Source: Candidatus Melainabacteria bacterium 17Bon1m (GTDB taxonomy: Bacteria > Cyanobacteriota > Vampirovibrionia > Obscuribacterales > Obscuribacteraceae). From it: DNA of 64,000 nucleotides. The notes beneath the pieces were generated by a model. It was not told the origin of the DNA. It was given only the letters and a program-made list of their open reading frames with translations, and ran no database searches. Positions within the stretch are counted from its first letter, which is position 1; each line of letters starts with the position of its first letter. Below are positions 4,235-52,896 of the stretch, in pieces. The stretch lies in contig JAVLKG010000007.1 in the NCBI GenBank assembly GCA_032128875.1, positions 298,496-362,495 of the forward strand, written 5' to 3'. The position numbers and the translations under genes were made by a program.

Positions 4235-4588
4235 TTAGCCAGCATTCGCGTCCAGCTCGGCGATGAGGCGCTCGAGCTTTTCGACGCGTTTGCAAGCGGC
4301 GGTATACGCACCCTGCGCGGCCGCATAGCGGACGCGATAGGGATTGTGCCGATAGCCCCATTTGAAGCTCGAGTAGAGCCTCGTCATGTGGGCGCGGTGC
4401 TCGCGAGCGACTGCGCGATCGGTCTTCGCCTTGATGAGTGCCTCGCGCCGTTCGGCGGAGTTCATCGCACGGAAGCGAGCCGTTTCGGCTTCGTCAGCCT
4501 TGCGGTACTCGCGTTCGAGGTAGAAGTGAAAACCGACCAGCGCCGCTACAGGGAGCAGCGCGGCGGCGATGATGAAGATTGTGGTCAT
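4235..4588 (-). CDS. Hypothetical protein, N-terminal TM anchor plus coiled coil
   Basis: Hydrophobic N-terminus, GGAG RBS, same codon bias as the operon. Confidence 0.7.
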   Translation of the reverse strand: MTTIFIIAAALLPVAALVGFHFYLEREYRKADEAETARFRAMNSAERREALIKAKTDRAVAREHRAHMTRLYSSFKWGYRHNPYRVRYAAAQGAYTAACKRVEKLERLIAELDANAG

Positions 4589-4604
4589 GTTGTTATGCTC
4601 CCGT

Positions 4605-5183
4605 TCAGAGTGTGAGTTCGTAGCAATTGAGCACGCGCTTGCGACCCTTGTACGTTCCGACCTGCTTGAAGCCGAAGCGAGGGTAGTAGGCGTTGCTGCG
4701 CATGCCGATTGGTGTCTTGAGCGCGACTTTCTCCATGCCGCGTTTACGCGACGCGGTAATCAGTTCGGTGAGGAGAAAGCTGCCGATGCCGCTGCTCTGC
4801 ATGTCTTCGGCAACGCCGATTTCATGAAGAGTGGTGGCACCATCTTGGCGGTGGTAGGCGCGCAAGAAGGCGACGATGCGCCCGTCTGCGTCGACCACCA
4901 CGCGAATGCGGTGTTGCGATTTCTCGCCGTCGGCGTTTTGATTTTTCACCGCGTCTTCGACCACCACCCTCGGCAGATAGCCGAAGGATGCGCGATTGTT
5001 CTTGCTGTTGATGATCTTGCGGATGCCGACGTAGTCTTCGACCTGGGCGTCACGCACCGTCAACTTCGTCGAGATTGTCTTCGAAGCGTTAGTTGCGCCT
5101 GTCCGGATCGTCGTCGGCAGCTTGCTGCGATGGGCGATGCAGGAAGGCCCACCAGCAAGAAGTCCGAGTTTTGATTTCGCCAT
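4605..5183 (-). CDS. GNAT-family N-acetyltransferase
   Basis: LHEIGVAEDMQSSGIGSFLL (motif A), NAYYPRFGF (motif B); GAGGAG RBS. Confidence 0.85.
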   Translation of the reverse strand: MAKSKLGLLAGGPSCIAHRSKLPTTIRTGATNASKTISTKLTVRDAQVEDYVGIRKIINSKNNRASFGYLPRVVVEDAVKNQNADGEKSQHRIRVVVDADGRIVAFLRAYHRQDGATTLHEIGVAEDMQSSGIGSFLLTELITASRKRGMEKVALKTPIGMRSNAYYPRFGFKQVGTYKGRKRVLNCYELTL

Positions 5184-5198
5184 TGTCGTCTCCTCTGG

Positions 5199-5837
5199 TT
5201 AGCCTTCGAGCGCCGCTGCGAGCATGCGGTCGTAGGTGACGCGCCGTTCGTAGTCCGTCTTGGGCGGGTTGTAGGGCAGCGCATCCGTGTAGATACGGGC
5301 GAAGTCGCCGGCTTGCGCCTTGCGAATTCGAGCGTTCCACACCTTGATGAGCTGGGCGGCGCAGGCGTCGGGCAGCGGTTCGCGGCGAGTGCGAAACTTG
5401 CTGGCGAAGCGACCCATCCAGCCGTTGCGGCGGACGTTCTCGAAGATTTGAACAATCTCGGGCACGTCGCTCACGCCGGCGGTGCTGATGATGAAGGGCG
5501 CCTTCTCATAGCGGAACGGCATGGTGCTGCCGTTTGCGCCGGGGGCGTCGGAATTTTGTGCGACTTGCCAGCGAATCTCGCTGCGATCGGAGTAGGGAAA
5601 CGGTGTCACCGGCGGTGTCAGGTAAACCAGCTTGAAGCCGGCGTCACCACCCTGGACAAACGCGATGCGAGCGCCTTTCAGCTCGTGCACCTTCTTGGGG
5701 TGCATGAGGTTGGTCTTGTGGCATCCGGTCAAACCGAAGCTGCCGAATTCCCAAAAGGGATCCGAGCGCATCTCGGTGGGGCGCTCCATGTGCGGCTGCC
5801 GGAGCAGCGCGACGAGCACTGTCTGCTTCTTGGGCAT
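5199..5837 (-). CDS. Conserved hypothetical protein, possibly nucleotide-modification-associated (Nmad2-like)
   Basis: DPFWEFGSFGLTGCH resembles, from memory, the Nmad2 NPF..TL.TC motif; start may be 5849. Confidence 0.5.
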   Translation of the reverse strand: MPKKQTVLVALLRQPHMERPTEMRSDPFWEFGSFGLTGCHKTNLMHPKKVHELKGARIAFVQGGDAGFKLVYLTPPVTPFPYSDRSEIRWQVAQNSDAPGANGSTMPFRYEKAPFIISTAGVSDVPEIVQIFENVRRNGWMGRFASKFRTRREPLPDACAAQLIKVWNARIRKAQAGDFARIYTDALPYNPPKTDYERRVTYDRMLAAALEG

Positions 5838-5940
5838 GTTTCTCTCCATGAGTTTGTTATGAAAGGAGAGCCACCGCGACTTAACGCGATGGCTCTCGGT
5901 TACTTAGACAAACCGCACAGAGAGGCGCTCTGCGCGATTA

Positions 5941-7494
5941 CTACGCTTCTTTGGCGGCGTTTTCGCCCACCTTCTCCACCTTCTCGGCGACCTTCTCGGC
6001 GACGATGACGCCGGTCGTGTCCGGGAATGGCACCGCCGCACCGAGCTTTCCGTCTGCATCTTCGAGCAGCCAGCAGTGCCCGTTGTAGCGGTTTTCCTCG
6101 ATCCACGGATTGAGGTAGCTGTCGCAGTGCACGACTTTGTAGCCGAGCGCGACCAGCTCTTTGTGCCATTCGTCGGTGGTCCAGACGCCGAACTCCTCGT
6201 TGACTTCCATCGCCCAGTTGGCGAGGTAGTCTTTCTTCGAGAGGAATTCGTTGGCTTCGTGCAGCGTCATGCGGAAGTGCGTGACGCCGTCGAAGACTCG
6301 CTCGTCGTAAGCGAAGCCGGGTTTCGCCGACTTGCCTTTGAACTCGCGGGCGAACTTGCGGAAGCGCTCCTCGAGTTCTGCGTCCTTGCAACGCAGCCAA
6401 ACAAGGCGGTCGCCGTTTTCTGGTTTCACACCATCGCGAATGATGATGCGCCCACCCACCATCAGTTCCAACCAGGCGTTCTTCAACGCCAGCCGGATCT
6501 GGTCACGGTCGTAGCCGTTGTACGAGTACACCTCGTGCATGACCGACGAGAAGATGATGGTCGACACCGTCCCTTCAGCGAAGCGCTTGTGGATGATGTT
6601 GCCCATCACAACTGCGACGTTGTGGTTGGGATAATGCTGACCTTCCGAGCGGTGCAGCAGGTCACGCGACAGGTCCATGCCGACGATCTGCGCCTTCGGA
6701 TAGAGGTTCGACAGATGAATCAGCAGGGTGCCAGTGCCGCAGCCTTTGTCGACGATGTAGCCGCCGACAATCCAGGGGCAAATGTCCTGAATCTTCACCG
6801 ATAAGCTGGCGTCCATGCCCTCGCTGTAGACGGCGAAGTCACGACCGTGCGACAGTTCGCCGTCGTCGTTGAGCAGCACGTCGCTGAAGAGCGTAGCGAT
6901 ACGCTCTTCGACTTGGTGGCTTTCGAAGACCGCAGCAGTCTCTGCCGTTGCCAGCTTTCGCCAGTCGCCGCGAGTCGCCACTGCCTGAAGCAGGTCGATG
7001 GGCAGCTTGCCGGCGGTGCTGGGCACGATCGCCTTGTAACCCGCTTTGGCGAAGTGCTTGTTGACGTCCGCGTTGGACGAGACGAGCACCGTGTTGGCGG
7101 GCGTGAGGACGGTCGTTTCGTCCGACTCCGACTTCACGACGTCGCAGATGTGCGCCGTCCAAGCCAGTGAATCGGGGATATCCGCGGCAGCATGGATTTC
7201 GTACGGGCGCCCGAGCTTCTTCGCGAAGCCCTCAGCGATGAGCTTGCGCTCGTTGCTGTAGAGCGGGTGCCGCTTGGTGCCGCCTTGCCCGTCCGCCGTG
7301 ATGACGAAGACCAGCTTGCCGGGAACGTGCTTGAGGGCACGCTTGAGCGAGCGTTCCTGGTCTTTGGTGACGCCATGCCAGCGTCCCACGAGGAGCAGAT
7401 ACTCGGGCTTCACGCCGAGGGCTGCGGTTATCGCCGTGCCGAGAGCTCCCTTCGGAGCGGGTCGGGGCGATTTCTTTACATGAGTCGTGCGCAT
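5941..7494 (-). CDS. Fusion of a degenerate NadM/NMNAT-like domain and a class I SAM methyltransferase
   Basis: N-term LLVGRWH..GTKRHPL..ER..DIPD..W; C-term IVDKGCGTG, GMDLS, FSSVMHE, GGRIIIRD; AGGAG RBS before 7494. Confidence 0.75.
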   Translation of the reverse strand: MRTTHVKKSPRPAPKGALGTAITAALGVKPEYLLLVGRWHGVTKDQERSLKRALKHVPGKLVFVITADGQGGTKRHPLYSNERKLIAEGFAKKLGRPYEIHAAADIPDSLAWTAHICDVVKSESDETTVLTPANTVLVSSNADVNKHFAKAGYKAIVPSTAGKLPIDLLQAVATRGDWRKLATAETAAVFESHQVEERIATLFSDVLLNDDGELSHGRDFAVYSEGMDASLSVKIQDICPWIVGGYIVDKGCGTGTLLIHLSNLYPKAQIVGMDLSRDLLHRSEGQHYPNHNVAVVMGNIIHKRFAEGTVSTIIFSSVMHEVYSYNGYDRDQIRLALKNAWLELMVGGRIIIRDGVKPENGDRLVWLRCKDAELEERFRKFAREFKGKSAKPGFAYDERVFDGVTHFRMTLHEANEFLSKKDYLANWAMEVNEEFGVWTTDEWHKELVALGYKVVHCDSYLNPWIEENRYNGHCWLLEDADGKLGAAVPFPDTTGVIVAEKVAEKVEKVGENAAKEA

Positions 7495-7642
7495 AGTTTT
7501 TCTCCTGCAAAGGAATACGGCATTTTCGTGCCGAATTAGACACGACACCGATGGAGCAAATTCATCGCTGAACTTGCAACCATCGGGTCGTATCCGGTGG
7601 TCGTCCTGGCGGACCTGACGACCACCCGGTCGCAGGCTCGCC

Positions 7643-8953
7643 TTACTTGCGAATCGCCTTCTTGCCCTTCAGCGCGGCTTCCACCGTGCGTCGGGTCGGC
7701 TTCACCATGTTGGCGATGACCGCGTCCGTGAACTTCACCGTGCCGACCTGGTTGCCGTTCTTCATGAACCGCGCCAGATCTCCGGTGGCAGTCTTCGAAC
7801 GCAGCGTCTTCTCGATGGCGCGAGTGACGCACACGGCGGCCTCGTCCCAGTCGATGTACTCCAGCATCATGACGCCGGAGAGGGTGAGCGAGCAGGGGTT
7901 CGAGATACCCTTGCCGGCGATGTCGGGCGCGGTGCCGTGCGTGGCTTCGAACATGGCGCTCTTGGCGCCGATGTTGGCGCCCGGAGCGATGCCCAGTCCG
8001 CCCACTTGACCGGCTGCGTCGTCCGAGATGTAGTCGCCGTTGAGGTTCGTGGTCGCGATGACCGAGAACTGAGTCGGCTTGCAGAGCAGCTCGTAGAACG
8101 TGGCGTCGGCGATGCGGTGGTTGAGCAGGATCTTGCCTTCCGGCAGCTTGCCGCCATGCACCTTCCAGAGGTCGTCCTCCGACACCATGATGTCGCCGAA
8201 CTCCTCAGCCGCAAGCTCCAGACCCCACTTCAGGAACGCGCCTTCGGTGTGCTTCTGGATGTTGCCCTTGTGTACGATGGTCACGACTTTGCGGCCATGG
8301 TCGATGGCGAACTCGATTGCTGCACGCACGATGCGGCGCGAAGCATACTTCGAAATCGGCTTGATGCCGATGCCGGAGTCTTCGCGGATTTCGTGACCGT
8401 ACTTGCGAGCAACGGCGATGATCTCTCGCGCGCCTTCGGAGCCGGCCTCGAACTCGATGCCCGCATACACGTCTTCCGTGTTCTCGCGGAAGATGACCAC
8501 GTCCAGGTCCTGCGGGCGCTTCACCACGGACACGATGCCCTTGAAGTAGCGCACAGGACGGACGCAGCTGTACCAGTCGAAGTGCTGGCGCATGGTCACG
8601 TTCAGGCTGCGGATGCCGCCGCCGGTGGGTGTGCCGAGTGGTCCCTTCATGCCGATGCCGTAGTAGTCGAGCATCTCCAGGGTTTCGGCCGGCAGGGGGC
8701 TGCCGAACTTCGCCACTGCTGCGTCACCAGCGTAAGCCGGCAACCAGGTGATGCTTCGTTTGTCGCCATAGCATTTCGCCACGGCGGCGTTGATGATGCG
8801 ACGAGTCGCTTCCGAGATTTCCGAGCCGATGCCATCGCCGTCGATGAACGGAATGATGGGGCGGGTCGGTTTCACGGCTTTGCCGTCCACGAGCTGGATG
8901 ATTTCACCAGCCGGGGCGGGCTCGCCGTAGAACTTTCTGACAGGTTTTGACAT
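7643..8953 (-). CDS. icd: Isocitrate dehydrogenase, prokaryotic type I, NAD+-type signature
   Basis: GDGIG, KGPLGTPTGGGIRSLNV, FRENTEDVY, VHKGNI, NLNGDYISD, FEATHGTAPDIAG. Confidence 0.93.
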   Translation of the reverse strand: MSKPVRKFYGEPAPAGEIIQLVDGKAVKPTRPIIPFIDGDGIGSEISEATRRIINAAVAKCYGDKRSITWLPAYAGDAAVAKFGSPLPAETLEMLDYYGIGMKGPLGTPTGGGIRSLNVTMRQHFDWYSCVRPVRYFKGIVSVVKRPQDLDVVIFRENTEDVYAGIEFEAGSEGAREIIAVARKYGHEIREDSGIGIKPISKYASRRIVRAAIEFAIDHGRKVVTIVHKGNIQKHTEGAFLKWGLELAAEEFGDIMVSEDDLWKVHGGKLPEGKILLNHRIADATFYELLCKPTQFSVIATTNLNGDYISDDAAGQVGGLGIAPGANIGAKSAMFEATHGTAPDIAGKGISNPCSLTLSGVMMLEYIDWDEAAVCVTRAIEKTLRSKTATGDLARFMKNGNQVGTVKFTDAVIANMVKPTRRTVEAALKGKKAIRK

Positions 8954-9210
8954 TTTTCGGACTCCTTTCGTCAGAGTTTTTCAACGAAGAACAGTTGGTC
9001 CGTTGTGACTCGCGTAAGGACGCGCGAGCTGAACAACGGACCGGACAGGCTTTCAGCTAATGGTCGATAGTCAACGCTCGGAGGAATACCCGAGAGAATT
9101 GCCGAAACGATGGTTGGGACTACGTTGTCGGTGTTTGTCTGACTAAAAGCTCCAAGAGTTGAAAGAAAAGAGATACAGCTATGACCCTAGTAGGTTTTAG
9201 GCAATGTCAA
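8954..9210 (-). promoter_or_regulatory. Promoter-like motif and structured 5' leader of the icd operon
   Basis: TTGACA-N17-GGGTCATAGCT (9210-9177); hairpin ggtccgttgt/acaacggacc at 8997-9042; AAGGAG RBS. Confidence 0.55.
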
Positions 9211-9356
9211 GCAATGCTTATTGCCTAATAATTTACGCAAGCCCGCGCGAAACTTTGAAATCTTAGATTTCTGGGTTCACTTAGCTGCGATAGCTCTTTG
9301 AACTGGGCTAAGTTGAGCTGGTCTTAAGAGAGGTCTAGGGTGGGTATCATGTTGGC

Positions 9357-15227: not shown

Positions 15228-15539
15228 TTACTTGCGGTTCTTGTCGTCGGTGTCGTCGCCAGGCTGACCTGAATTTCTGTCGTCACGGTTGGTACCGTCA
15301 CCGTTTTCCCCATCGCGATTGCGCGGGCGGTTGGCACGAGCAAGCGCACCAGCGAGCTCATAGAGCCCCCAGGTGCTGAAGATCATGACCACGAACGCCA
15401 GCTTGATGCAGTCGACTGCATAAGCAACTGCATCGCCGCCGGTACCGATTGTCCAGAGGACACCGAGACCGAAAGCCGGACCCATGATGGAGATTGTGAC
15501 GATAAGACCGTAGAAAAACGATTGCCAGAAGCGATTCAT
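15228..15539 (-). CDS. Small two-TM membrane protein with C/G-ending codon bias
   Basis: AAGGAG RBS; two TM; D/N/R-rich tail. Confidence 0.7.
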   Translation of the reverse strand: MNRFWQSFFYGLIVTISIMGPAFGLGVLWTIGTGGDAVAYAVDCIKLAFVVMIFSTWGLYELAGALARANRPRNRDGENGDGTNRDDRNSGQPGDDTDDKNRK

Positions 15540-16517
15540 AACGGTGCTCCTTCAGTTTATGGAAGCGCATGGATATGCGTTCCTATCAGCCGTTTTCGAA
15601 ATTGCGGCCGATTGGTTGTGTAACTAGCTACCGCGAGACTGCTACTCGTGATCTCAAATACTTGGTCTTGCCAAAACGCATCTTCAATCCGACGAACAAC
15701 ACCGGGTCGCTTTCGCGGCCGTAAGGTAATTGCTGGCAGGAGAAGAATTTGGCTGGGAAGCTGGGGGTTTGGGATCAAGAGGGGTAGTTAGAAAGCAATC
15801 CGAGGTTAAAACTAATAAGCAACTACGATCAAGAACTCATGACTGAAGCCTAAAAAGGCCGTTTAAAAATGTGCACGGTGCAAGTCCTAGAAGGTGCAAC
15901 CGGCTGGGCTCCTGCTTGGTTGGTGAAGAAGTAGCGCAACTGATGGCAGCGAGTTGAGAATTAGCGCGGCTCGTAGACGGACTGCTTTGTGGTTGTAATG
16001 AGTTCTTCTGTAATTGGTTTTGAGTTATCAACATCGCTTCTTTTGGAGAGTTGGCTGTCGATGACGACCGATGACAAGAGGTTGTGCGAGCCTTGTAAAC
16101 CATGACAAGCTCGTTATTTCAAGGTTTCAAAACCAATTCGTAGGCTCCGTCAATGCCTAGGACTTTCAGTCACTATCAAAAATTTTCGTCGAGAATTCAT
16201 TTTGTTTTGGGAAGCTGTCGACTTTGAGTGACGTGCCATCACAATTGGTGCTGATAATGTTTTGATGCGGTGGCACATTCGCACTGTATATGGTGGTTGA
16301 TCATAAAAAGATGGATGTCAGTATGAAAAACGCGGGAACTTTGTAAACTGCCATATAGTCAACGCTTTCAGCCCTGTTTGTATTCGAAGTGGTACCGCCG
16401 GTGCCATCGCGAAAATAAAAAGGATAGACGGTTGATTTTTTATACGACATCATTATGATAATGTTTTAGAATCTTGCAAAAAGAAATTCTGTTTAGCGCC
16501 ACTAGAAGGAGCGATCG

Positions 16518-39537: not shown

Positions 39538-41055
39538 ATGAAACGAGAAAGGCAAAAGCGTTCGGCTAGCCCCAGCCAGCGTATCAAAATGCACATCTTG
39601 GGGTCGGCTGGAGATGTCTCCGGCTCGCTGTTCTACTTCGAGTACTCGCCGCCTGAAGGCAAAGTCATTCGCTTCCTGCTGGAAGTGGGCTTGCACCAGG
39701 AGCACGAGGAAATCAATCGCCAGAAGCGCCTTCCCAAGGGCGTCGACGCGAAGGACATCAACTTCGTCATCATCAGCCACGCGCACATCGACCACTCCGG
39801 TTGGTTGCCCGCGCTGGTGAAAGACGGCTTCCGCGGCGCGGTGTACACGCACCCTGCCACGAAGGACCTCCTGGACTTCTTGCTGCTCGACTCTGGTCGT
39901 CTGCAGGAGAATGCGGCTGACCGCGTCAACCGCTTCATCGCTCGCCGCCAGAAGAAGGCACAGGCAAGCGGCAAGAAGAGCCGGCGCATTCCGATGAGCG
40001 TGCCGTTGTACACACCGGAAGATGTTCCGCTGTGCTTCCCGCTCTTCAAGTCCATCAACTACAACCAGCTCTACAACATCGCCGACGGCATCCAGCTGCG
40101 CTTCACCGAAGCCGGCCACATCCTCGGCGCCGCTGTTGTGACCCTGACCATTGGCAAAGGTGACGAGGCGAAGACCGTGTGCTTCACGGGCAACGTCGGT
40201 CGCGCTGCTCCGCCGATGCTCAAGCCGCTCGTGCCGGTCAAACACGCTGACTACGTGATCACGGAGTCGACGTACGGCAACAAGCTGCATCAGAAGCGCG
40301 ACCGCCTGTCGACGCTCGCTGAGTACATCAACAACGCTTACGCACGCGCCAAGCAGAAAGATCGCGCCACCGGCTGTGGTGTCATCGTCATTCCTGCTTT
40401 CGCTGTGGACCGCGTACCGACTGTGCTGCATGACGTGCAAACGCTGGCAGCGCAGGGTCGTATTCCCAACCTGGCTACTTACCTGGACAGCCGCATGGCT
40501 ATCGCCGGCGCCGCTGTCTACCGGAAGTATCCGGCGCTGTTCCAGGATGACGTTCGCCAGCAGCTCGAGAAGGGTCTCGACCCGTTTGCTCCGGCGCGTT
40601 ACCTCGAGTGCGTCAAACCGGAACAGACCAACGCTCTGTACGAAAACCAGAGCGAGCCGATCATCATCGTCGGTTCTTCCGGCATGGCTGCCGGCGGCAA
40701 GATTCTTCGCCACCTGGAGAAGCGTCTGACGCAGAAGAACAGCACGGTGATCTTCGTCGGCTACCAGGGCACTGGTGCTCTCGGCTACGACCTCGTCAAT
40801 AAGAAGCCGAAGCAGGTCCGTGTGCACGGGAAAGTCATTCCTGTGCGCGCCACCATCGAGTACATGTCCGACTACTCCGGACACGCCGACTACGAGGAAA
40901 TCATCGGTTGGCTGCGCCACTTCGAGAACAAGCCGCGTAAGACGTTCCTGGTTCACGGGGACGGCGGTGCGCTCGAGGCCTTCAAGGGTCACATCGAAAA
41001 GGCGCTCGGTTGGTCGGTTGTCGTGCCTCAGCGCCGGCAATGCTTCGAGCTCTAA
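39538..41055 (+). CDS. MBL-fold beta-CASP RNA-processing hydrolase (YSH1-like)
   Basis: SHAHIDHSG, AGHILG, ESTYG, SSGMAAGG, VGYQ, SGHAD, FLVHG. Confidence 0.9.
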   Translation: MKRERQKRSASPSQRIKMHILGSAGDVSGSLFYFEYSPPEGKVIRFLLEVGLHQEHEEINRQKRLPKGVDAKDINFVIISHAHIDHSGWLPALVKDGFRGAVYTHPATKDLLDFLLLDSGRLQENAADRVNRFIARRQKKAQASGKKSRRIPMSVPLYTPEDVPLCFPLFKSINYNQLYNIADGIQLRFTEAGHILGAAVVTLTIGKGDEAKTVCFTGNVGRAAPPMLKPLVPVKHADYVITESTYGNKLHQKRDRLSTLAEYINNAYARAKQKDRATGCGVIVIPAFAVDRVPTVLHDVQTLAAQGRIPNLATYLDSRMAIAGAAVYRKYPALFQDDVRQQLEKGLDPFAPARYLECVKPEQTNALYENQSEPIIIVGSSGMAAGGKILRHLEKRLTQKNSTVIFVGYQGTGALGYDLVNKKPKQVRVHGKVIPVRATIEYMSDYSGHADYEEIIGWLRHFENKPRKTFLVHGDGGALEAFKGHIEKALGWSVVVPQRRQCFEL

Positions 41056-41178
41056 GCTCGTAGTCGAACTCAAGCTCGGCATCGAACACTGAACACCAGG
41101 CAGCAAGCCTCCGGAGAACAGGCTCTACCTGAGCGGCAGAGCTTGTGATCCGGCGGTCGCTGTCGAAGGAGATTTAGT

Positions 41179-41586
41179 ATGCCCAAAATCATTCTCGTCC
41201 ACCTGGCATTCTTCGCCGCGCTCTTCGCGCTGGTGTTGCCGGGTTTGAACAACCTCACAGAAGCGGTTGGTTTCGGCGGCGGCATTCTTGCTGTCGCAGT
41301 CATGACCGTGCTGGCAGAGGTGGTGGTTATTGCCAGTGGCGTGCTCGGTCGCATCGTCGGCGACGCGCTCGGTATCAACCCCTTGCTCCAGCGCAAAAAG
41401 GCGGAGACCCTGTCGGCGAGCATCATGACGGTGCTCTTCGCCGGCTTCCTGTGGGCGAGTTCGGCAATCTTCCCGTCCGTCATCACCGTGACGTTTGTTT
41501 CGTCATTGCTGGTGTCGGTCGTGGCTGTCGTCGTTCTCTTCATCGCGGTCTACGTCAAACGCGCCATCATCGCCAGCCGACCCTGA
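41179..41586 (+). CDS. Four-TM small membrane protein
   Basis: Four hydrophobic segments; AAGGAG RBS. Confidence 0.75.
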   Translation: MPKIILVHLAFFAALFALVLPGLNNLTEAVGFGGGILAVAVMTVLAEVVVIASGVLGRIVGDALGINPLLQRKKAETLSASIMTVLFAGFLWASSAIFPSVITVTFVSSLLVSVVAVVVLFIAVYVKRAIIASRP

Positions 41587-41700
41587 GGCTGGTCGCAGGC
41601 CATGGCCTTTTCTGTTGAGCACCGAAAGGAGCTCAACGGAAACGGCTTATAGCGCAAGCTTATGGCCGTTCTTTCCTGTCCACCAGAAAAGGAACACTCG

Positions 41701-42396
41701 ATGAACAAATGGTGGAGAAAACTCTTGCCCGGTGGTGAGCGCCTCGCTCTTCCTCCGCGGCGAGTCACGCAGTGGTTTTGGGTGGTCATCGCCATCCTGT
41801 CGCTGCCGTTCATGATTCTCGACACTGCCAGCCTGTACGACACCGCCATCGCACAAGGTGCGACTTTCGGCGATGCAGCACTGCGCGCGCTCGTCGGGTT
41901 CTTCGCTATTGGGCTCGCATACGGGATGATGGGAGGAATGCTCTTCTTCCTGGTCTGCCTATTCACTTCGGTAGTGATACCGGATGTGGTGTCGGGAGTC
42001 CGAGCCGTCAACAATGCCGCCCGTCGCACACCCGCTGCCTGGCAGCGGTTTCGCGAAAACGCTTCTCGCGCCACGTCGAGAGTGCGTCAAAGGACGGTTT
42101 CGTTCTTGCGCTTCCTGTCCGGAATTCCGGTCAAGGTTCGCGCAATGACCGCGCGCGATTGGCTGTTCACGCTCTACTGCGTGCTCGCCGTCGCTATCCT
42201 CGCCGGTATGCTCTGGTTCGCCTGGGGCTGGGCAGGCGTGGTCGTTTCGTGGCTGCCCGATTGGCTTTTCGACGACCGGCGCTGGTTCCTCCAGGCTATC
42301 GTCGACTGGTTCATCTGCATGATTCCATGGACGTTGGCGCTCTCCGTGCTGAACGCTGTGTTTAAGGCGTTCATCAGGCGGGGAAGTAAGCGCTAA
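41701..42396 (+). CDS. Four-TM membrane protein with Arg-rich loop
   Basis: AAGGA RBS; TM pairs flank ARRTPAAWQRFRENASRATSRVRQR. Confidence 0.7.
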   Translation: MNKWWRKLLPGGERLALPPRRVTQWFWVVIAILSLPFMILDTASLYDTAIAQGATFGDAALRALVGFFAIGLAYGMMGGMLFFLVCLFTSVVIPDVVSGVRAVNNAARRTPAAWQRFRENASRATSRVRQRTVSFLRFLSGIPVKVRAMTARDWLFTLYCVLAVAILAGMLWFAWGWAGVVVSWLPDWLFDDRRWFLQAIVDWFICMIPWTLALSVLNAVFKAFIRRGSKR

Positions 42397-42460
42397 CGCA
42401 GGTCCTTCACCACTTACGCTGTGGGCGGCTCAGCTGCCCATGGCACAAGGAAAAACTGAT

Positions 42461-43054
42461 ATGAGTCACGAGAAAAAGACTTGTTCTTGTCACGGCGCCG
42501 CCGGTCAGCCTGCTGCGAACGCAACGGGCTCCATCTCTCTCAGCACCCCGCGACCCAAGGTCACGCTGCCGAAGATGATCAAGGTCGCTAAGGCTGACGA
42601 GGCTCTCTATCGCCAGGTCATCGAAGCCGCCAAGCGGGCGAGCGAAGATGCCTACTGTCCGTACTCCCAGTACAACGTCGGTGCTGCGGTGCTGACGTTC
42701 GACGGTGAGATTCACGCTGGTTTCAACGTGGAGAACTGCGGTTACTCGCAGACCATTCACGCCGAGGAATCCGCACTCACCCGCGCTCTCGGCAGCGGTT
42801 TGCTCCGTCGCGCGGCCACCCAGGGCGTCGATCAGTTCCATGCCATCAAGGCTGTCGCGGTCTACGCGCCCAAGGGTTCCGACCCGTGGCCCTGCTGCAA
42901 CTGCCGCCAGTTCCTGGGTGAGTTCGGTTACGACATGCACATCATCGGCGAAGAGCCGAAGAGTGGTCGTATCCTTTGCCTGACGCTCGGGCAGCTCGTT
43001 CCGTTCGCCTTCCCAATCGAGGAAGTGCTTCGCAGCGTGCGCGGCGAGCGCTAA
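42461..43054 (+). CDS. cdd: Cytidine deaminase with N-terminal extension
   Basis: AYCPYS..VGAA, GFNVEN, HAE, PCCNCRQ, LVPFAF. Confidence 0.9.
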   Translation: MSHEKKTCSCHGAAGQPAANATGSISLSTPRPKVTLPKMIKVAKADEALYRQVIEAAKRASEDAYCPYSQYNVGAAVLTFDGEIHAGFNVENCGYSQTIHAEESALTRALGSGLLRRAATQGVDQFHAIKAVAVYAPKGSDPWPCCNCRQFLGEFGYDMHIIGEEPKSGRILCLTLGQLVPFAFPIEEVLRSVRGER

Positions 43055-43160
43055 AACGCTCACCGACGACCATGCACAAGTGGAGGCCGGGGTCTAATCA
43101 CCCCGCGCCTCTGCTTGTGTTATGGGCGTCTTCGAATATCGCGAACTTAGAGGACGCACT

Positions 43161-43700
43161 ATGTTGGCTCTGCATGTAGCTATCAGCCTGGTGTTCGTGT
43201 ACCTGCTCTTCTCGCTTGACGAATACGTCACGCATCGCTACCTCATGCATCGCATGAAGTTTGCGAACTGGCTGAAAAGCAAGTTCCTGAGAAGGCTGTG
43301 CACGAATCACATGTCGCTGCATCACAAGCGCGGTTATCGACACACTGATGACGAGCCGGACGATTCTCTGGCCGACATCATGATCGCCGCTGCTATCGTC
43401 GGGCTGCCGACAGCTCCCATCGTCTGGTACATCGATCCGATCACGATCTATGTGGCAGGCGTGTTTTCTGTCGTCTACAGCGTAGTTTGGTGGCTGGTGC
43501 ATCTCGAGATGCATCGCAACAAGGGGTGGTTCTATGCGAAAAACCCTGTGTTTCGATACCTCGAACGGCGCCATCAGCAGCACCATCTCTACCCCGACAC
43601 TCAGTACAACATTCTTCTGCCGTTCTGGGACTGGGTCTTCCGCACTCATCGCGTGAAGGAAGCACGTCAGAACCGACGTCAGCGCGCTGCGGCATTCTAA
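43161..43700 (+). CDS. Fatty acid hydroxylase/sterol desaturase superfamily membrane enzyme
   Basis: His boxes EYVTHRYLMH, HMSLHH, VHLEMH, HQQHH; PFWDWVFRT. Confidence 0.85.
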   Translation: MLALHVAISLVFVYLLFSLDEYVTHRYLMHRMKFANWLKSKFLRRLCTNHMSLHHKRGYRHTDDEPDDSLADIMIAAAIVGLPTAPIVWYIDPITIYVAGVFSVVYSVVWWLVHLEMHRNKGWFYAKNPVFRYLERRHQQHHLYPDTQYNILLPFWDWVFRTHRVKEARQNRRQRAAAF

Positions 43701-46407: not shown

Positions 46408-47286
46408 TCATTGAATCAGTTCCATCACCACCGCGCCGAGCACGATGAGCGAGATACCGATTGCGCGAACGACATTGAGTTTTTCCTTCAGGAACGTGAG
46501 CGCGAAGACGTACATCACAAGCGGGTAGCCGGCGGTCATCGTAATCACGTATCCAGCGGTCGAATTGGTGAGCGCTAAGATATACGCGATATTACCCGCG
46601 GTGACACCTGCGGCTGAAAGCCAGGAGAATTTCCAGGCGCCGGGTGTGCGGAAAGCTGTTTGGTAGCCGTATTTCCTGAAGAAGATAAGGATTAAGACGA
46701 CCAGTGCAGTTTTCCAGCAGGCCTGCGCGAAGTACGTTTCGAACGGGCGGCCGAACTCAAGGGCGCGTTTTTCAAAGATGCCGAGCAATCCCCAGAGCAG
46801 TGTCGACAACACCACGCAGAAGATGAGCACGAGCTTGTCGTGCTTGGTCATCTTCTTTTGTTCTTCTCCACCTGACCAGCCAATCAGAGCCACGCCAACG
46901 CTGACGAGGGCTGCGGCTGCGACTGCGGAGATTTTGAACGGTTCGCCCGTGAGCGGAGTGGAGAGAAGTTGCCCGATTATCGGATAGCCGGCTGTGATGC
47001 CCAAAACCCAAGATGCCTGAGTTTTGCTCATCGCATAATAGTAGGCGAGAAACGCCACCATCGCCGCCACCGCATTCAGACCTTCCCACATGATGACGCC
47101 CGTGCCGATGTGCCAGTCCGGATAGATCCAGGGCATGGACACACCAAGCACGAGCGCGACCACTCCAAGAAAGAGGTGGAAGGTGACGAAAACCGCACGC
47201 GGCTCCGCCGATTCTACCGCCTTCTTGTCAAAGATGCCCGCCACGCCCCATGCCATGAGGGTTAGAGCGATCCAGGCTATTGTCAT
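46408..47286 (-). CDS. EamA/DMT family transporter
   Basis: Ten TM, WG..GIFDKKA, ITAGYP, internal duplication. Confidence 0.88.
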   Translation of the reverse strand: MTIAWIALTLMAWGVAGIFDKKAVESAEPRAVFVTFHLFLGVVALVLGVSMPWIYPDWHIGTGVIMWEGLNAVAAMVAFLAYYYAMSKTQASWVLGITAGYPIIGQLLSTPLTGEPFKISAVAAAALVSVGVALIGWSGGEEQKKMTKHDKLVLIFCVVLSTLLWGLLGIFEKRALEFGRPFETYFAQACWKTALVVLILIFFRKYGYQTAFRTPGAWKFSWLSAAGVTAGNIAYILALTNSTAGYVITMTAGYPLVMYVFALTFLKEKLNVVRAIGISLIVLGAVVMELIQ

Positions 47287-47317
47287 TCCAGGTTGTCCCT
47301 TCGGAAAGCGGGTGCGT

Positions 47318-48517
47318 TTAGGCGCCCTTGTTGTCCTTTTCCACGGGCTCGCCATCAGCTTTTGGCGCTGCGGTTTGCCCGTTGGTGACCGATTGCCCGT
47401 TTGCAGTGCAGGGCTGTCCGTTTTCCGGACTGGTTCGCCCGCCGTTGCCGGTCGGTTTTGCGACTTCTGCAGAAGCTGCCTGTGTCGGAGTTACACCGGT
47501 GTCTCCGGTGCGCAAAGGGGTTTGCTGCTCGACGGCATTAGCCTGACCTTGCGGTCCTGCCACTGTCCGATCGTCAGTTTCCAACACCTGAGCCTCCCTG
47601 CCGCCGGCAACTTCATTCGGTGCCCCGTTTTTACTTTTCGTTCTCGTCACCGCATACTCTATAACCTTGTTCATCTCGGCGGCAACCAGGAGAACAAGGC
47701 TCGAGAGCCAGAACCAGAACATCAGAGCCATAACCCCGCCCAGCGAGCCGTAGATGCGGTTGTACGAGGCGAAGGTCAGCACGTATTCGCGGAAGAGCAG
47801 CGTGGCACCCAGAAAAACGATGGTGCCAAAAACACTGCCCGGCGTCACCCAGCGTCCACGCTGATGAGAAGCCGGTCCCATACGGAAAATCAGTGCCATG
47901 CTGCCCATGACGGTAGCCGGCACGACTATCCACTTTACGATGGTCACGTAGTAAGCCGTGTCACCGGTGATGTGAAACAGGCTCAAAATCTGCGGCCATG
48001 CCAGAAGAACGATCAACGCTACGAGCCCAATCGCCATCTGGATGATGGTGATGAGAATCGCCCATAGCCGCACGTGCCAGTACGGGCGCGTTTCCTTCAC
48101 ACCATAGATCTTGTTGAGAGCATCCATGATGTCGACGAAAACTGCCGACGCCATCCAGAGCAGCACCACGATGCTGATAGAAACCAGCCCGATTGGTGGC
48201 TGCTCCTGGATGTGTGTGATCTGATCGGTGATCACATTGGCTATGTCGGGCGGAAAGAGAGTCAGCAAAAACTCTCGCACCTGCTCGGGCGTGAGATTGC
48301 CGATGCCCAAATCTACTCCATTTGAAGCTCCCGAGAGATTCGGGAGCAAGTAGATGAAGGCGGTCAGCGCGAGGATAAGGAAGGGAACCGACGCCATCAT
48401 TGAGCTGAAGGCGATTGCCGAAGTGCGTGTCAGCACCTCGTGGCGGGTGATGTTGCGCCACGTTTCGACGAAGAGTTCCCAAACAGTCAGTTTGCCTGTC
48501 ACCTCGGGCAGTTTCAT
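47318..48517 (-). CDS. YihY/BrkB family membrane protein
   Basis: ALNKIYGVKETR, YNRIYGSLGGV, AEMN; low-complexity tail. Confidence 0.9.
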   Translation of the reverse strand: MKLPEVTGKLTVWELFVETWRNITRHEVLTRTSAIAFSSMMASVPFLILALTAFIYLLPNLSGASNGVDLGIGNLTPEQVREFLLTLFPPDIANVITDQITHIQEQPPIGLVSISIVVLLWMASAVFVDIMDALNKIYGVKETRPYWHVRLWAILITIIQMAIGLVALIVLLAWPQILSLFHITGDTAYYVTIVKWIVVPATVMGSMALIFRMGPASHQRGRWVTPGSVFGTIVFLGATLLFREYVLTFASYNRIYGSLGGVMALMFWFWLSSLVLLVAAEMNKVIEYAVTRTKSKNGAPNEVAGGREAQVLETDDRTVAGPQGQANAVEQQTPLRTGDTGVTPTQAASAEVAKPTGNGGRTSPENGQPCTANGQSVTNGQTAAPKADGEPVEKDNKGA

Positions 48518-49885
48518 TCATTTGCCCTCCGGCTCGCCTGTTGCATTGGCGACCTTGGCGGTGTCGGCGGCCAGGTAGCGAGCGCCCCACAGCCAGAGAA
48601 CGCCCGAGAGGAGGATGGCGCCGGACACCACCAGGAAGGCTGTGTTCATGCTGCCGGTTTTGTCCGCAACTGCGCCAATCACCATCGGTGATATCACGTC
48701 GCCGAGCGCGTGAATGATGAGGATGTTGAGCGCGAATGCGGAGGCACGCATCGCAGGATGCGTCACGTTGGCGAGGATAGTGTTGGAAGGACCGGTCGAT
48801 ACGAAGAGGCAGAAGCAGGCGCCGAAGATGAGACCCCACGCATAGGGAAACGGCGTGTAGAGCGCCGCGATCCAGAGCGGGAAGCCCACCAGCATCGCTG
48901 CTGCCGAGACCTGGAAGTATGCACCCTTGAAACGATCGCGCAGTTTGTCGGCGATCCAGCCACCGAATACGGTGCCGGCGATGCCTGCTACGACGAGAAT
49001 GCCGCCGAAGATCAAGTTGACCTGAGCGAGGTTTTCCACACCGCGATATTCGTGGATGTAGGACGGAATCCAGAAAGAGATGCCGCCCATGGCGAAGGTC
49101 ATCGCTGCCATGCCGAGCGTGTCGAAGCGGAAGGACGGAATCTTGAGGATGCCGGCGTAGTCCTTGAGGGACATCTTCTTCTTCGACTGTTGGACGAGGT
49201 TGTCCGCGCCGCCGCGGGTGGGCTCTTTCATGAAGAGACACCAGATACCGAGCAGAACGCCGGGCGGAACGACGAGGTAGAACGCCCATTGCCAGCCGAG
49301 ATGCGCCGCGACCTGCCCACCCAGGATGAAACCGAGGGCAGCGCCGATCGGAATGGCCAGGTAGAAGAACGCCATCACCTTGCCGCGCACGTTGAGCGGG
49401 AAGATATCGGAGAGCATCGCGGGGGCGATAGGACCGTATGCTGCTTCACCGATGCCGACGAAGCATCGTGTGAGGAGCAGCACGCCGAAGGTGGTCGCCA
49501 GTCCGGAGCCGCCTGAGGCGAGACTCCAGAGGATGACACCGAAGGCGATGATCCACCATCGCTTGAGATTGAGGGCGCCGAAGATAGGTGCCGTGATCAT
49601 GTAGGTGACCATGAATGCCATCGCCAGAAGGCCAATCATGGCGTTTTCCGGATGACCACCGAGGAAGCCGCCGAAGAAATTCAGCAGCCCCTGCACGAAT
49701 GGACCGGGCTCAGCGCCAGGTGCAAAGAATTCTTCTCTGATATTCGGCACAACGGCAGCCAGAACTTGCCGGTCAATCCAGTTGAAGAGATTGATTGCAA
49801 GGAGCAGCCATAGTGCACCTTTCGCTCCGGGCGCGGCGTTGGCAAAAATGCCGCCGGGCGCGGAGCCTTGTTTTTGATCAGACAT
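48518..49885 (-). CDS. Spinster-like MFS transporter
   Basis: INLFNWIDRQ, RCFVGIGEAAY, HALGDVISP. Confidence 0.88.
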   Translation of the reverse strand: MSDQKQGSAPGGIFANAAPGAKGALWLLLAINLFNWIDRQVLAAVVPNIREEFFAPGAEPGPFVQGLLNFFGGFLGGHPENAMIGLLAMAFMVTYMITAPIFGALNLKRWWIIAFGVILWSLASGGSGLATTFGVLLLTRCFVGIGEAAYGPIAPAMLSDIFPLNVRGKVMAFFYLAIPIGAALGFILGGQVAAHLGWQWAFYLVVPPGVLLGIWCLFMKEPTRGGADNLVQQSKKKMSLKDYAGILKIPSFRFDTLGMAAMTFAMGGISFWIPSYIHEYRGVENLAQVNLIFGGILVVAGIAGTVFGGWIADKLRDRFKGAYFQVSAAAMLVGFPLWIAALYTPFPYAWGLIFGACFCLFVSTGPSNTILANVTHPAMRASAFALNILIIHALGDVISPMVIGAVADKTGSMNTAFLVVSGAILLSGVLWLWGARYLAADTAKVANATGEPEGK

Positions 49886-49914
49886 GTGAGGAGTCCTTAG
49901 GGTGAAACCATCCT

Positions 49915-49966
49915 GTAGGGCTGCGCATGCGCAGCCCTTTCAGGGAACCGCATGCGGTTCCCCTAC
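49915..49966. repeat. GTAG-type REP doublet (REPIN-like)
   Basis: gtagggctgcgcatgcgcagccct + agggaaccgcatgcggttcccctac. Confidence 0.8.
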
Positions 49967-50039
49967 TCAGGAAGGGATGTTTCATTTATCCGAGTGTCAG
50001 GGCTCGTGCCCGCATTATTGCGAGCAACCGATTTGGAGA

Positions 50040-50810
50040 TTACTTCGTGCGACGACGCGATGCGCCGGGCGTGGAAGTTTTCACCGGTGTGCTTTTGCAC
50101 GCCGTGACAAACACTTTGAAGAGCCGCCTATTGCCTTCGAAGTCGCGCTCCGGATGCCATTGCACGCCGATGACAAATCGTTTGCGGAGATGTTCTACCG
50201 CTTCGATAATGCCATCTTCCGCATGGGCAGTTGCCTTCAGCCAGCGCGCCAATTTGAGCGCCGCCTGATGGTGGGAGCTGACCGTCTGAGCAATGACGGA
50301 GCCATAGATGGAGAACAGCTTGCTGTCCCGGGCGACCATCGCCGAGTGAGTGGCGCGTGGTTCACCTTCGTTTGCCCGGTGCTTGATGTTCGCTCTGACC
50401 GCACAGTTTGCAAGCGAGGCGAGGTGCTTCGGAATGTCGATGATAAGCGAACCTCCTAGCGCAACGTTAATCAGCTGGAGGCCTCCGCAGATTCCGAGGA
50501 CTGGGAGATTGCGCTTGATAGCTTCTTTGGCCAGCGCCAGGTCGAACTTAACCCTGTCCGGGTGGAGCAGTGCCACAGTTTCGTCCTGTTCGCCGCCGTA
50601 AAGCTCGGGATTGTAGTCACGTCCGCCGATGAGGAGGACGCCATCGAGCCGGTCCAGAATGCGCCGCATTGCAGCGGGTTTTGAAGGCGGAATCAGCACC
50701 GCAATGCCGCCCGCCTTCTCCACCGCTTCGTAGTAGGCACGCGCGACGCGCACCTGTTCCGGCTTTGTGACGTCCACATCGACATTCAAGCCGATGATGG
50801 GTTTCGTCAT
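50040..50810 (-). CDS. Peptidase C26 / PuuD-like gamma-glutamyl hydrolase
   Basis: PVLGICGGLQ, SSHHQA, GVQWHPE. Confidence 0.92.
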   Translation of the reverse strand: MTKPIIGLNVDVDVTKPEQVRVARAYYEAVEKAGGIAVLIPPSKPAAMRRILDRLDGVLLIGGRDYNPELYGGEQDETVALLHPDRVKFDLALAKEAIKRNLPVLGICGGLQLINVALGGSLIIDIPKHLASLANCAVRANIKHRANEGEPRATHSAMVARDSKLFSIYGSVIAQTVSSHHQAALKLARWLKATAHAEDGIIEAVEHLRKRFVIGVQWHPERDFEGNRRLFKVFVTACKSTPVKTSTPGASRRRTK

Positions 50811-51796
50811 AGCGTTGCCATATCCTCGATTACGTACATGATGCCGTCGACTGCCAGCGTCATACGCGTGAAGTCGAGGCGATCGATGGTGTCTTTGGGT
50901 GTGTGGTAGAGCGGGTAACGGAAGTTGGACGTGTCGGTGACCATCACACCATCGTAACCATGCTGCCAGAAAGCCCAGTGGTCCGAGCGACCGGCGTCCT
51001 TGGCGAAGGACGGCGCCGCGACACCTTCGGAAGGCAGTCCCGCATGTTTGCGGAACACCTCAACGCAGCGGCGCACAAAACTGCGACCCTTGGCGTTGCC
51101 GACGAAAGCCAGGAAATTGGCGACGGTCGGATAGAACAGGTTGAACGGGCTCGGGTAGTGCTGGGAGTTGGGCTCGGTCGAGTAAACGCCGAGCATCTCC
51201 AGAGAGAGCATGCCAACGATGTTCTCGTTGCGCTCACGGCAGCGTTTCGCATAGGCAAAACTGCCCATCTGGTCCCAGGTGCCGCCCGGATGCTCTTCAT
51301 TGGCAAAAGCCACGAAGCGAATTGTGCGGTCGGGAGCATTGGCAGCGGATCGGCGGCAGAAGGCGCGGCACAACTCCAGCATGGCGGCGACGCCGGTGCC
51401 GTTGTCGTCCGCTCCGGGAGTGTTGTTGACGGTGTCATAGTGAGCACCGACCACAACAATTTCATCAGGGCGCTTCTTGCCTTTGATTTCGACGATCAGA
51501 TTCGGCATTACCTTGCCATCGAACTCGATGTTCTGACGCTCGACCTCGAGATTGAGTCCCTTGAACTCGCGCTCGATGTAGTCGATAGCCTTGAGCATGC
51601 CGGCGTAGTTGCCGATGCTGCGCTCACCGATCTGAACCGCCAGCGTTTCGACGTGCTCAGTCAGCCGCGCGCGCAGCAATTCTTGCGGCCGTCCGAAAGA
51701 CGGCAGGCGACCCCGATAGCTCTGTCCCGGCATTTTGACGTACCGGTAAGCCAGAGGGTAGAGCAAGAACTTGAGAATGGTTTTCTTGAAGCTCAT
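50807..51796 (-). CDS. M28 family peptidase
   Basis: GAHYD, GADDNGTG, ANEE, SDH, YHTPKD. Confidence 0.9.
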   Translation of the reverse strand: MSFKKTILKFLLYPLAYRYVKMPGQSYRGRLPSFGRPQELLRARLTEHVETLAVQIGERSIGNYAGMLKAIDYIEREFKGLNLEVERQNIEFDGKVMPNLIVEIKGKKRPDEIVVVGAHYDTVNNTPGADDNGTGVAAMLELCRAFCRRSAANAPDRTIRFVAFANEEHPGGTWDQMGSFAYAKRCRERNENIVGMLSLEMLGVYSTEPNSQHYPSPFNLFYPTVANFLAFVGNAKGRSFVRRCVEVFRKHAGLPSEGVAAPSFAKDAGRSDHWAFWQHGYDGVMVTDTSNFRYPLYHTPKDTIDRLDFTRMTLAVDGIMYVIEDMATL

Positions 51797-51831
51797 ATTA
51801 TTGTCTCCTCAAGTTTTTCACATTTCCGCAC

Positions 51832-52896
51832 TTAAGGGAGGATATGAGGGGCTTCCTTCAGGAAGACACCCTCGACTTGGCGAGCGAAGCAGCGCTTGCG
51901 AATCGACTTGATGTCGATGGCGGCAAGGTTGCGGCGCAGCCTAAGGAGAGCGTCCCGATTTTCTACCGGGATGCGTTTGCCGCGTTCGAGAGCGTCCACC
52001 GTGGAGATGAACCCTTCGACTACTGCGTGCCATTTCTGGTCGAGATTGAGCGTGAACTCCATGGCGTGAAATCCACGAATCATCGGCTGAGCGAGCATCA
52101 AGCCGTCCTTTTCTTCGGGATGGACTGCATCGATGGACACGCACTTTCCGCCGCAAAAGATGTGGAAGAGCATGCGTAGCCACCGATTTTTCTTGATGAT
52201 CTCTTCGCTGATGTCGATGGCGAAGATGTCCGATTTCTTGACGCCGAAATAACGCGGCGGCAAGTCGACTGGGCACTCACCGAACTCGGTGAAGGCCCCG
52301 TCCCACAGCGGCTCGCCTTTGAAGGCGACCGCATCGATCACGCCGGGAATGGCGCAGGAAGCGCGAACAGCCATACCCACAGGCACGGGCTCGTTGGCCA
52401 CGTGCAGCGGGTGCGTGCCGAGACCCATGTGATGAGCACCGTTTTTGGTGAACACCACATAGCCACGATCGGCACTGGCGACTGTCCAGTATTTGTCAGG
52501 CCACGTCTTGGTGACGGTGCTGACGAAAGTCCCCAGCTTCTCGCTAGAGAAAACGCCGTTTTCCGGGCGAGTCTGCTCATAGCGATACTTCATGAGGAGT
52601 GCGAGAACTTGTCCGAGCTTGCCGGTCTTTGGCGTGAGCAGGCTGGAGAAATCCGTCTGCAACGCGTGCGACAGAATCTGCGTGGCATCTGCTCCGCTTG
52701 CCAGAAGTGCTGCGGGTATCGACCCGCCAGAAGCACCTCCGATGGTGGCAAAGTTTTTCAGTCCGGCGAGTTGAAGGGCAACGATGGCTCCGGCACCAGC
52801 CAGAACCGCTTTGCTCCCTCCGCTTCCGAAGACCACATTCAGCTCGCCCATTTCGCTAGAACGCAGAACGAGGTCTGCTTCATTTGGGCTTGTCAT
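51832..52896 (-). CDS. Patatin-like phospholipase
   Basis: GSGGSKA, GASGG nucleophile elbow, ASCAIPG, WDGA. Confidence 0.88.
   Translation of the reverse strand: MTSPNEADLVLRSSEMGELNVVFGSGGSKAVLAGAGAIVALQLAGLKNFATIGGASGGSIPAALLASGADATQILSHALQTDFSSLLTPKTGKLGQVLALLMKYRYEQTRPENGVFSSEKLGTFVSTVTKTWPDKYWTVASADRGYVVFTKNGAHHMGLGTHPLHVANEPVPVGMAVRASCAIPGVIDAVAFKGEPLWDGAFTEFGECPVDLPPRYFGVKKSDIFAIDISEEIIKKNRWLRMLFHIFCGGKCVSIDAVHPEEKDGLMLAQPMIRGFHAMEFTLNLDQKWHAVVEGFISTVDALERGKRIPVENRDALLRLRRNLAAIDIKSIRKRCFARQVEGVFLKEAPHILP

Follow-up and report, generated by a model that had tools for sequence, protein, structure and literature searches.

The question raised by this stretch of DNA, a 64,000-nucleotide window of the genome of Candidatus Melainabacteria bacterium 17Bon1m (contig JAVLKG010000007.1, or G000:C7 here, positions 298,496-362,495), is why four blocks of its genes prefer C/G-ending codons, unlike their neighbours. 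The first-pass annotation of the window had taken these blocks for a co-regulated programme with no integrase or transposase beside it, whose proteins share an Arg/Lys-rich tag. Genes were called over the whole genome G000 (7.55 Mb, 35 contigs, 49% GC) with a self-trained caller, yielding 6142 genes with approximate start sites. Both observations on the blocks were confirmed: the 17 flagged genes had a G+C content at third codon positions (GC3) of 0.745 (0.66-0.84), compared to 0.510 (0.30-0.61) for the other 37 genes of the window (P = 5e−9), and no integrase or transposase families appeared in a Pfam scan of 52 open reading frames (ORFs) of the window. As argued below from sequence comparisons, the blocks probably belong to a second, stage-specific regulon of genomic scale, which would serve a non-dividing, macromolecule-digesting and stress-resistant state and would be held near the replication origin (oriC) for dosage or access.

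To begin with, the GC3 of the whole genome was bimodal, and a codon likelihood ratio assigned 549 genes to a high-GC3 class (H) and 5535 to a low-GC3 class (L), with 58 unassigned, so the clustering proposed by the annotation held genome-wide. The H genes were grouped in same-class runs (286 runs vs. 579 ± 17 under permutation), about 540 of them forming some 150 patches interspersed with ordinary genes. Every synonymous family in the H genes had moved towards G/C, and their coding strand was asymmetric, with a stronger depletion of A than of T whichever the replication strand. The H coding sequences also avoided out-of-frame TAA and TAG to an extent not explained by codon use (0.33 and 0.47, compared to 0.69 and 0.80 in L). 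Moreover, a Shine-Dalgarno motif was found for 72% of the H genes and 28% of the L genes, the start codon of the H genes was ATG in 512 out of 549 (93%) and their stop codon TAA in 299 (54%), while two or more membrane segments were predicted in 22% of H and 14% of L proteins. Separately, GGCC was strongly avoided in the coding sequences of both classes (0.33-0.37 of expectation), which suggests a long-standing restriction or methylation site.

The H genes were concentrated in one part of the chromosome, with 536 of them in about 1.40 Mb (which also held 595 L genes) and 13 in the other 6.15 Mb. This H region was made up of seven contigs in full and the first parts of three more, approximately 13-18% of the genome, flanking dnaA, while contigs C1, C2, C4, C6, C9-C11, C16 and C17 had at most two H calls each. 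The dnaA gene, at C7:149,968, lies inside the region near the switch of the GC skew from minus to plus; it stands, among neighbours which we take to be rnpA, yidC, jag and dnaN, within a 52-kb gap free of H genes (105.7 to 157.5 kb). Since the limits of the region in G000 were drawn from the H genes themselves on unlinked contigs, position was tested independently in G017, a genome of another genus with a 2.86-Mb contig. In 40 sampled windows of 20 kb from this genome, 101 H and 114 L orthologues were located at 340-1100 kb, as compared with 8 H and 195 L elsewhere, and dnaA and the skew switch were found near 585 kb. In both genomes the H genes were confined to zones flanking oriC, in G000 around a protected core. 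The GC3 of the H orthologues in G017 was also higher (0.80 vs. 0.72 for L), an offset that recurred in G024 and more weakly in G018, and the orthologues of the five-gene operon at 4235..8953 of the window retained a GC3 of 0.73-0.87 across the genus. H markers were missing from several members of the genus (G011, G005, G006 and G010); in particular, G011 had no H aconitase, PrkA or TerD though nearly identical elsewhere, and such absences may represent true loss or the binning loss of GC-rich contigs. Regarding tRNA genes, only tRNA-Asp, beside dnaA, was present in the H region, so a separate tRNA set was rejected; three tRNA arrays were observed outside it (C1:269233-270215, C3:1007950-1010321 and C4:286272-286804), one of them near integrase genes. 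Tyrosine integrases gave eight matches in the genome and none in the H region (transposases were not searched genome-wide), and neither mobility genes nor tRNA-anchored borders of the kind seen in islands were found. A scan for parS gave no clear site, its three matches with two mismatches all falling outside the H region.

A common promoter motif was found for the H genes. The region upstream of the second isocitrate dehydrogenase (IDH) gene of the window contains a block conserved in nine genomes of the genus, within which the promoter predicted for this operon falls (Table 1). The model seeded from this block describes TTG, an 18-bp spacer (72%), TAGnnT and a G-poor pyrimidine tract, at a median of 247 nt before the start codon, and the same motif was obtained from a bare TTG/TAnnnT seed containing neither the G nor the tract. 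It appeared in 110 of the 148 operon-leading regions, and its held-out area under the curve (AUC) was 0.83 when compared with 351 L regions and 0.88 when compared with the reverse strand. Strong sites, counted in-sample, preceded 78 of 291 H genes, 20 of 365 L genes in the region and 12 of 2500 L genes outside it; the motif was therefore shared, strand-specific and rare elsewhere. Furthermore, the G000 model ranked H orthologues above L ones in G017 (56 vs. 106 regions, AUC 0.70). Position −8 was A in 6% of the H sites, compared to 24 out of 44 hexamers upstream of tRNAs, and, by promoter zone, in 7% of 375 H hexamers and 27% of 3446 L hexamers; as no housekeeping motif was recovered from the L regions, the contrast between H and housekeeping promoters rests on 31 tRNA windows. 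Strong H-type promoters were also observed before low-GC3 genes (C17:76127, C27:56, C27:10025 and C5:218829), some of them on plasmid-like contigs, C17 and C27 presumably bearing relaxases. Promoter and GC3 are thus separable, and mobile elements may be tapping the H programme. Other candidates were rejected: the motif was not recovered from a generic housekeeping seed whose spacer was fixed (AUC 0.53); a CGCG/GCTAG-rich upstream element was enriched, but it was strand-symmetric, stood at no fixed distance and performed weakly under cross-validation (AUC 0.66, falling to 0.50 against the reverse strand); and no 10-12-mer indicating integron-like or other repeated recombination sites in the spacers was common to more than 10 of 479 upstream regions.

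The transcripts predicted from these promoters would open with folded leaders of about 230 nt carrying strong ribosome-binding sites. Compared with shuffled sequences, and with no L comparison set, the folding of the first 60 of 97 leaders gave a median z of −3.2; for the IDH leader, z was −3.76 and none of 200 shuffles was equally stable. A lock between the pyrimidine tract and the Shine-Dalgarno site, prompted by the IDH fold, was rejected, given that native and swapped tracts paired to similar extents in 88 leaders (0.106 vs. 0.123) and that removal of the tract freed the site only slightly (from 0.43 to 0.47). In a strain of run X9, 91 other letters replace 446 bp upstream of the IDH promoter (window 9312-9759) and 75 letters replace 9 within the leader (window 9055-9065); similar hairpin insertions occur in the IDH leader of relatives. 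Two extra S1-domain proteins encoded in the H region (C7:86922 and C19:43975) are candidates for translating folded leaders.

Substitution rates were compared between the two classes. At four-fold degenerate sites, the differences were lower in H than in L genes, both relative to G011 (0.151 in 70 genes vs. 0.268 in 99) and to G007 (0.239 in 63 genes vs. 0.503 in 76). When changes were polarised by parsimony in 54 H and 66 L genes, the H/L rate ratios were 0.31 for G>A, 0.38 for C>A, 0.45 for G>T and 0.51 for C>T, while they were 0.69-0.95 for A/T-to-G/C changes and 0.62-0.92 for GC-neutral ones. The H genes lost G/C from synonymous sites at a half to a third of the rate of their neighbours, and two-fold sites agreed with this result. 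Such a low rate implies that the bias is maintained and not just fading. The equilibrium GC estimated by parsimony was 0.66 for H and 0.51 for L, which allows a mild decay but not a drift to the host value; neither the host-like per-site rates nor the drift to host GC of an ameliorating island was found. In addition, GC3 was equal in the 74 H genes with an other-genus orthologue (0.772) and the 337 without one in the sampled DNA (0.770). Selection, biased conversion and protection from damage are alternative causes, and the coding-strand asymmetry favours one acting at the RNA level.

The content of the class was scanned in 281 proteins of 140-900 residues from the 40 H-richest of 58 stretches, using strict Pfam cut-offs, and 121 of them had a match. 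Among them were 26 peptidases, glycoside hydrolases, acyl-CoA dehydrogenases, citrate synthase, aconitase, PEPCK, a Ter cluster, PrkA, SpoVR, MoxR/DUF58, RNA ligase, Sir2, ADP-ribosylglycohydrolase, two class-I tRNA synthetases and one S1-domain protein; lipid hydrolases and stress and RNA-repair proteins were among the H products as well. No polymerase subunit, sigma factor, histidine kinase or capsid was present among these 281 proteins. A total of 17 H/L pairs shared 53-73% identity, among them aconitase, IDH, PEPCK and, presumably, MDH, fumarase and CysRS. The H-poor genome G021 had one aconitase and three FtsH, compared to two and seven in G000, and still had seven group-1/2 sigmas. In quick trees, the H-type IDH formed one family-wide clade apart from the native enzyme; duplication and import were equally compatible with the data (approximately unbiased (AU) test, P = 0.5), and no outside IDH above 58% identity was found among the best 80 of 599 matches. 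A domesticated prophage or jumbo phage was rejected as well, as 11 of 85 scanned proteins matched PHROGs, the head and tail rows containing only a protease and an RNA ligase, and neither of two viral scans found viral relatives. PMC13623518 concerns a mis-assigned phage contig and has no bearing on the H class.

The claim of a shared basic tag for targeting, packaging or RNA binding did not extend beyond individual proteins. All seven basic stretches quoted in the first-pass annotation are present in the sequence, although that of the patatin lies inside the protein, some 20 residues short of its C-terminus. Over the class, the Lys + Arg fraction of the last 20 residues was the same in 493 H and 5102 L proteins (0.148 in both, P = 0.79), and that of the first 20 was similar (0.124 vs. 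0.116, P = 0.095). A strongly basic patch in the last 30 residues was slightly more frequent in H (28 proteins, 5.7%) than in L (183, 3.6%; P = 0.025), an excess that vanished under a stricter cut-off (7 vs. 54, P = 0.49), and about 94% of the H proteins have no such patch. Likewise, neither terminal charge nor extension length differed in 97 H/L paralogue pairs (P 0.13-0.80), and neutral or acidic ends occur within the same blocks (genes 4235, 5199, 5941, 47318, 48518 and 50807). In favour of the claim, 3 of 17 H proteins of the window passed the patch test, compared to 0 of 34 L proteins; the isoelectric point was higher in H (7.1 vs. 6.35), and so was the N-terminal net charge (0.84 vs. 0.12, P = 1e−10), mostly due to fewer Asp/Glu; comparison with their L paralogues also showed whole H proteins to be a little more basic (per residue, +0.004 vs. 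−0.007, P = 4e−5). The named tails are conserved within the genus: that of the methyltransferase was found in 7 of 7 homologues with at least 82% identity, 4 of 51 with 49-72% and 0 of 37 distant ones; that of the IDH was found in 9 of 9 close copies and has no counterpart in H-type IDHs from two further genera; and the insert of the beta-CASP protein is shorter in G017 but still basic. These tails are genus-level traits of single proteins, mostly not extending further. Basic tails as such were equally common in low-GC3 genes, the outcome that the annotation itself had set as its refutation, and a tag common to the class is very improbable. The co-regulated programme, on the other hand, gains backing from the strand-specific motif, which holds under cross-validation, from the long leaders predicted to fold and from the confinement around dnaA in two genera.

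Explanations requiring no separate cell state were also weighed. The differing GC of the H-rich contigs could point to a chimera of two organisms made in assembly or binning, but single contigs from other runs cross H and L genes at even depth, and H and L genes alternate in synteny in G011, G007 and G002 as well, which refutes it. If the H genes were simply the most highly expressed ones, with translation-optimised codons and origin-proximal dosage, their strong Shine-Dalgarno sites, their ATG and TAA preferences and their slower synonymous change would be accounted for, and a few H calls outside the region, including what we take to be GAPDH, AtpA and L33, were counted in favour of this explanation. 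However, EF-Tu, RpoC and L1 (GC3 0.60) were scored as L, the ribosomal cluster of 40 genes retained GAA, AAA and CAA with a codon shift correlating only 0.44 with that of H, and the ribosomal and polymerase genes are located outside the region. The H class is distinct from the ribosomal codon class, and high expression is quite improbable as its cause. The main rival, also unlikely though less so, is that of a mere relic, in which an ancient GC-rich replicon or a set of imported operons became established near the origin, prior to the radiation of the family, and has been slowly ameliorating, the promoter being the housekeeping style of the donor. The G/C shift of all synonymous families, the confinement to a single region, the 53-67% identity of duplicated housekeeping enzymes to the native copies, the separate H-IDH clade and an equilibrium estimate slightly below the stable expectation would all fit it. 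Yet amelioration predicts equal per-site rates, as opposed to G/C-to-A/T rates 0.31-0.51 of those in neighbours; GC3 is independent of an other-genus orthologue; low-GC3 genes, in part located on plasmid-like contigs, have the promoter too; the region has one tRNA gene and neither integrase nor virion genes; and the AU test on IDH does not tell import from duplication. Beneath a stage-specific regulon, a relic replicon may still be the origin of the set.

Several results weigh against a stage-specific regulon. Only about half of the held-out H regions (53% of 128) scored above the 95th percentile of L, and no housekeeping motif emerged from the L upstream regions; all 17 sigma genes of G000 lie outside the H region, their best H-promoter score being 11.0 bits, none strong; and the four sequence runs gave flat, DNA-like contigs (X1 and X4 behave like DNA). 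To these should be added the self-drawn limits of the region in G000, the two H matches, both of background GC3, in eight sampled windows of G021, the presence of TerD in 5 of 13 genus genomes, individual H genes thus being patchy, and the peptidase share, which has no L comparison. Moreover, a simulated stable GC of 0.765 was returned by parsimony as 0.69-0.72, above the H estimate, and second codon positions were more conserved in H (0.031 vs. 0.052).

The stage-specific regulon remains the preferred reading, and a mechanism can be proposed for it. The H motif would, with good probability, be read by one of about six group-2 sigma-70 paralogues, or else by the primary sigma acting with a dedicated activator, switching the set on together. 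In the resulting non-dividing state, the cell would digest and respire macromolecules and withstand stress with its own copies of tricarboxylic acid (TCA) cycle enzymes, tRNA synthetases, S1 proteins and FtsH. There is an even chance that this is a starved, resting or dispersal cell, feeding on a host or prey being less probable. The position near oriC may have been selected, a somewhat less than even prospect, if only that part of the chromosome were duplicated or accessible in this state, as in the Bacillus forespore; that it marks the landing place of an old replicon is a weaker alternative. High GC3 and UA avoidance are slightly more readily ascribed to selection on the mRNA, favouring its stability and disfavouring internal housekeeping −10 sites, than to other causes. 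More speculative, and doubtful at present, would be a family-wide, hitherto undescribed differentiated cell type (resting, dispersal or host-attached) expressing only the origin-proximal sixth of the chromosome. A dedicated sigma, a second copy of central metabolism and structured mRNAs of long life would then serve its programme of about 500 genes, as a convergent counterpart of the forespore.

Table 1. H-class genes of the window with their predicted promoters and leader (positions in window coordinates)
Feature	Position	Strand	Details
H-class operon	4235..8953	-	five genes, GC3 0.76-0.84
Small membrane protein	4235-4588	-	in 4235..8953 operon
GNAT acetyltransferase	4605-5183	-	in 4235..8953 operon
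216-aa protein without assigned function	5199-5849	-	in 4235..8953 operon
Adenylyltransferase-like/SAM methyltransferase fusion	5941-7494	-	in 4235..8953 operon
Second isocitrate dehydrogenase (IDH)	7643-8953	-	in 4235..8953 operon
Predicted IDH 5′ leader, ~225 nt	8954..9176	-	pyrimidine tract at opening, strong Shine-Dalgarno site at end
Predicted H-type promoter, IDH operon	9184..9214	-	-35 at 9214-9209, 19-bp spacer, -10 TAGGGT at 9189-9184; 14.7 bits
Lone H-class small membrane protein gene	15228..15539	-	GC3 0.66, acidic tail
Predicted H-type promoter of 15228-15539	15803..15832	-	18-bp spacer, 11.7 bits, 269 nt to start codon
Weak promoter candidate, 39538 operon	39210..39258	+	9.3 bits; -10 candidate 39234-39239, then pyrimidine tract; uncertain
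H-class operon: beta-CASP ribonuclease, two membrane proteins, cytidine deaminase, fatty-acid hydroxylase	39538..43700	+	GC3 0.69-0.79
H-class operon: patatin, peptidase M28, peptidase C26, MFS transporter, BrkB/YihY membrane protein, EamA transporter	46408..52896	-	GC3 0.68-0.75
Promoter candidate, 52896 operon	53275..53325	-	11.9 bits, 403 nt before start; -10 not typical H form; uncertain

Some other features of the window were recorded. No Rfam families were found in it, and the 216-aa protein gave weak EVE-like leads in the ESM Atlas and nothing stronger. Immediately after the IDH operon, at 3431-3947 on the minus strand, lie a Phd/YefM antitoxin gene and, downstream of it, an 89-aa ORF with no Pfam match that we take to be RelE/ParE-like. 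Four Clp N-domain genes without a motor (198-3410, plus strand) diverge fast (51-85% to G011), and short repeated intergenic elements, probably of a REP-like family, break assemblies at 12382-12430 and 17361-17442. A large, probably secreted protein without a Pfam match (28441-32031, minus strand) and its low-GC3 neighbour (27773-28369, minus strand; 0.30) had no matched G011 orthologue. Finally, 1.9 kb without a called gene (53000-54790) lie upstream of the patatin operon, long divergent spacers being typical of H operons.

With some 540 genes listed, a single promoter motif and a defined place on the chromosome, a hidden life stage in uncultured, non-photosynthetic relatives of cyanobacteria would become directly testable and, if the reading is true, a hidden cell type would be readable from codon use alone. 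The genome is also a clean case of neighbouring genes with different GC equilibria, which bears on what maintains bacterial GC content. Furthermore, the composition of H-rich contigs is different and binning may miss them, with a resulting bias in metabolic reconstructions for the group. No prior description of such a codon-marked, origin-flanking programme was found in the literature searched, whose coverage excluded subscription journals.

Among known systems, the stationary-phase regulons of RpoS-type and cyanobacterial group-2 sigmas use near-housekeeping promoters with an altered −10 interior and spacer, and they include stress and catabolic genes such as PrkA-YeaH-SpoVR; to our knowledge, they are scattered round the chromosome and have neither a separate codon regime nor a duplicated TCA set. 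The H class resembles them in its predicted promoter style and in PrkA/SpoVR, and differs in its origin clustering, codon regime and TCA copies. Ameliorating genomic islands and integrated chromids show compositional contrast in blocks and regional clustering, whereas the H class has no mobility genes seen, a family-wide age, a reduced GC-to-AT rate and a single promoter type.

In Bdellovibrio bacteriovorus, 92 of 140 attack-phase promoters have a FliA box, and the genome is a mosaic of attack- and growth-phase patches that differ in GC but not in wobble GC (PMC3627812). The two organisms share programme-specific patches, one promoter consensus for several hundred genes and a GC difference. 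The sigma of Bdellovibrio is FliA, whereas the motif of the H class is sigma-70-like; its GC3 is 0.26 apart from that of L, and its patches keep to the surroundings of the origin. Phase specificity was measured in Bdellovibrio and is predicted from the genome here. No flagellin was found in five genomes. In the sigma-F zone of the Bacillus/Geobacillus forespore, acquired, membrane-rich genes of one promoter class flank a narrow protected origin zone (10.1101/381442). The large wobble-position contrast of the H class is missing from both systems. That zone covers about a third of the chromosome, compared to 13-18% for the H zone, and its transfers ameliorate to the GC of their neighbours, whereas H genes stay apart. 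The likeness is one of placement, as distinct from sporulation machinery or asymmetric division: in both cases, one promoter class rich in membrane proteins flanks a protected origin core.

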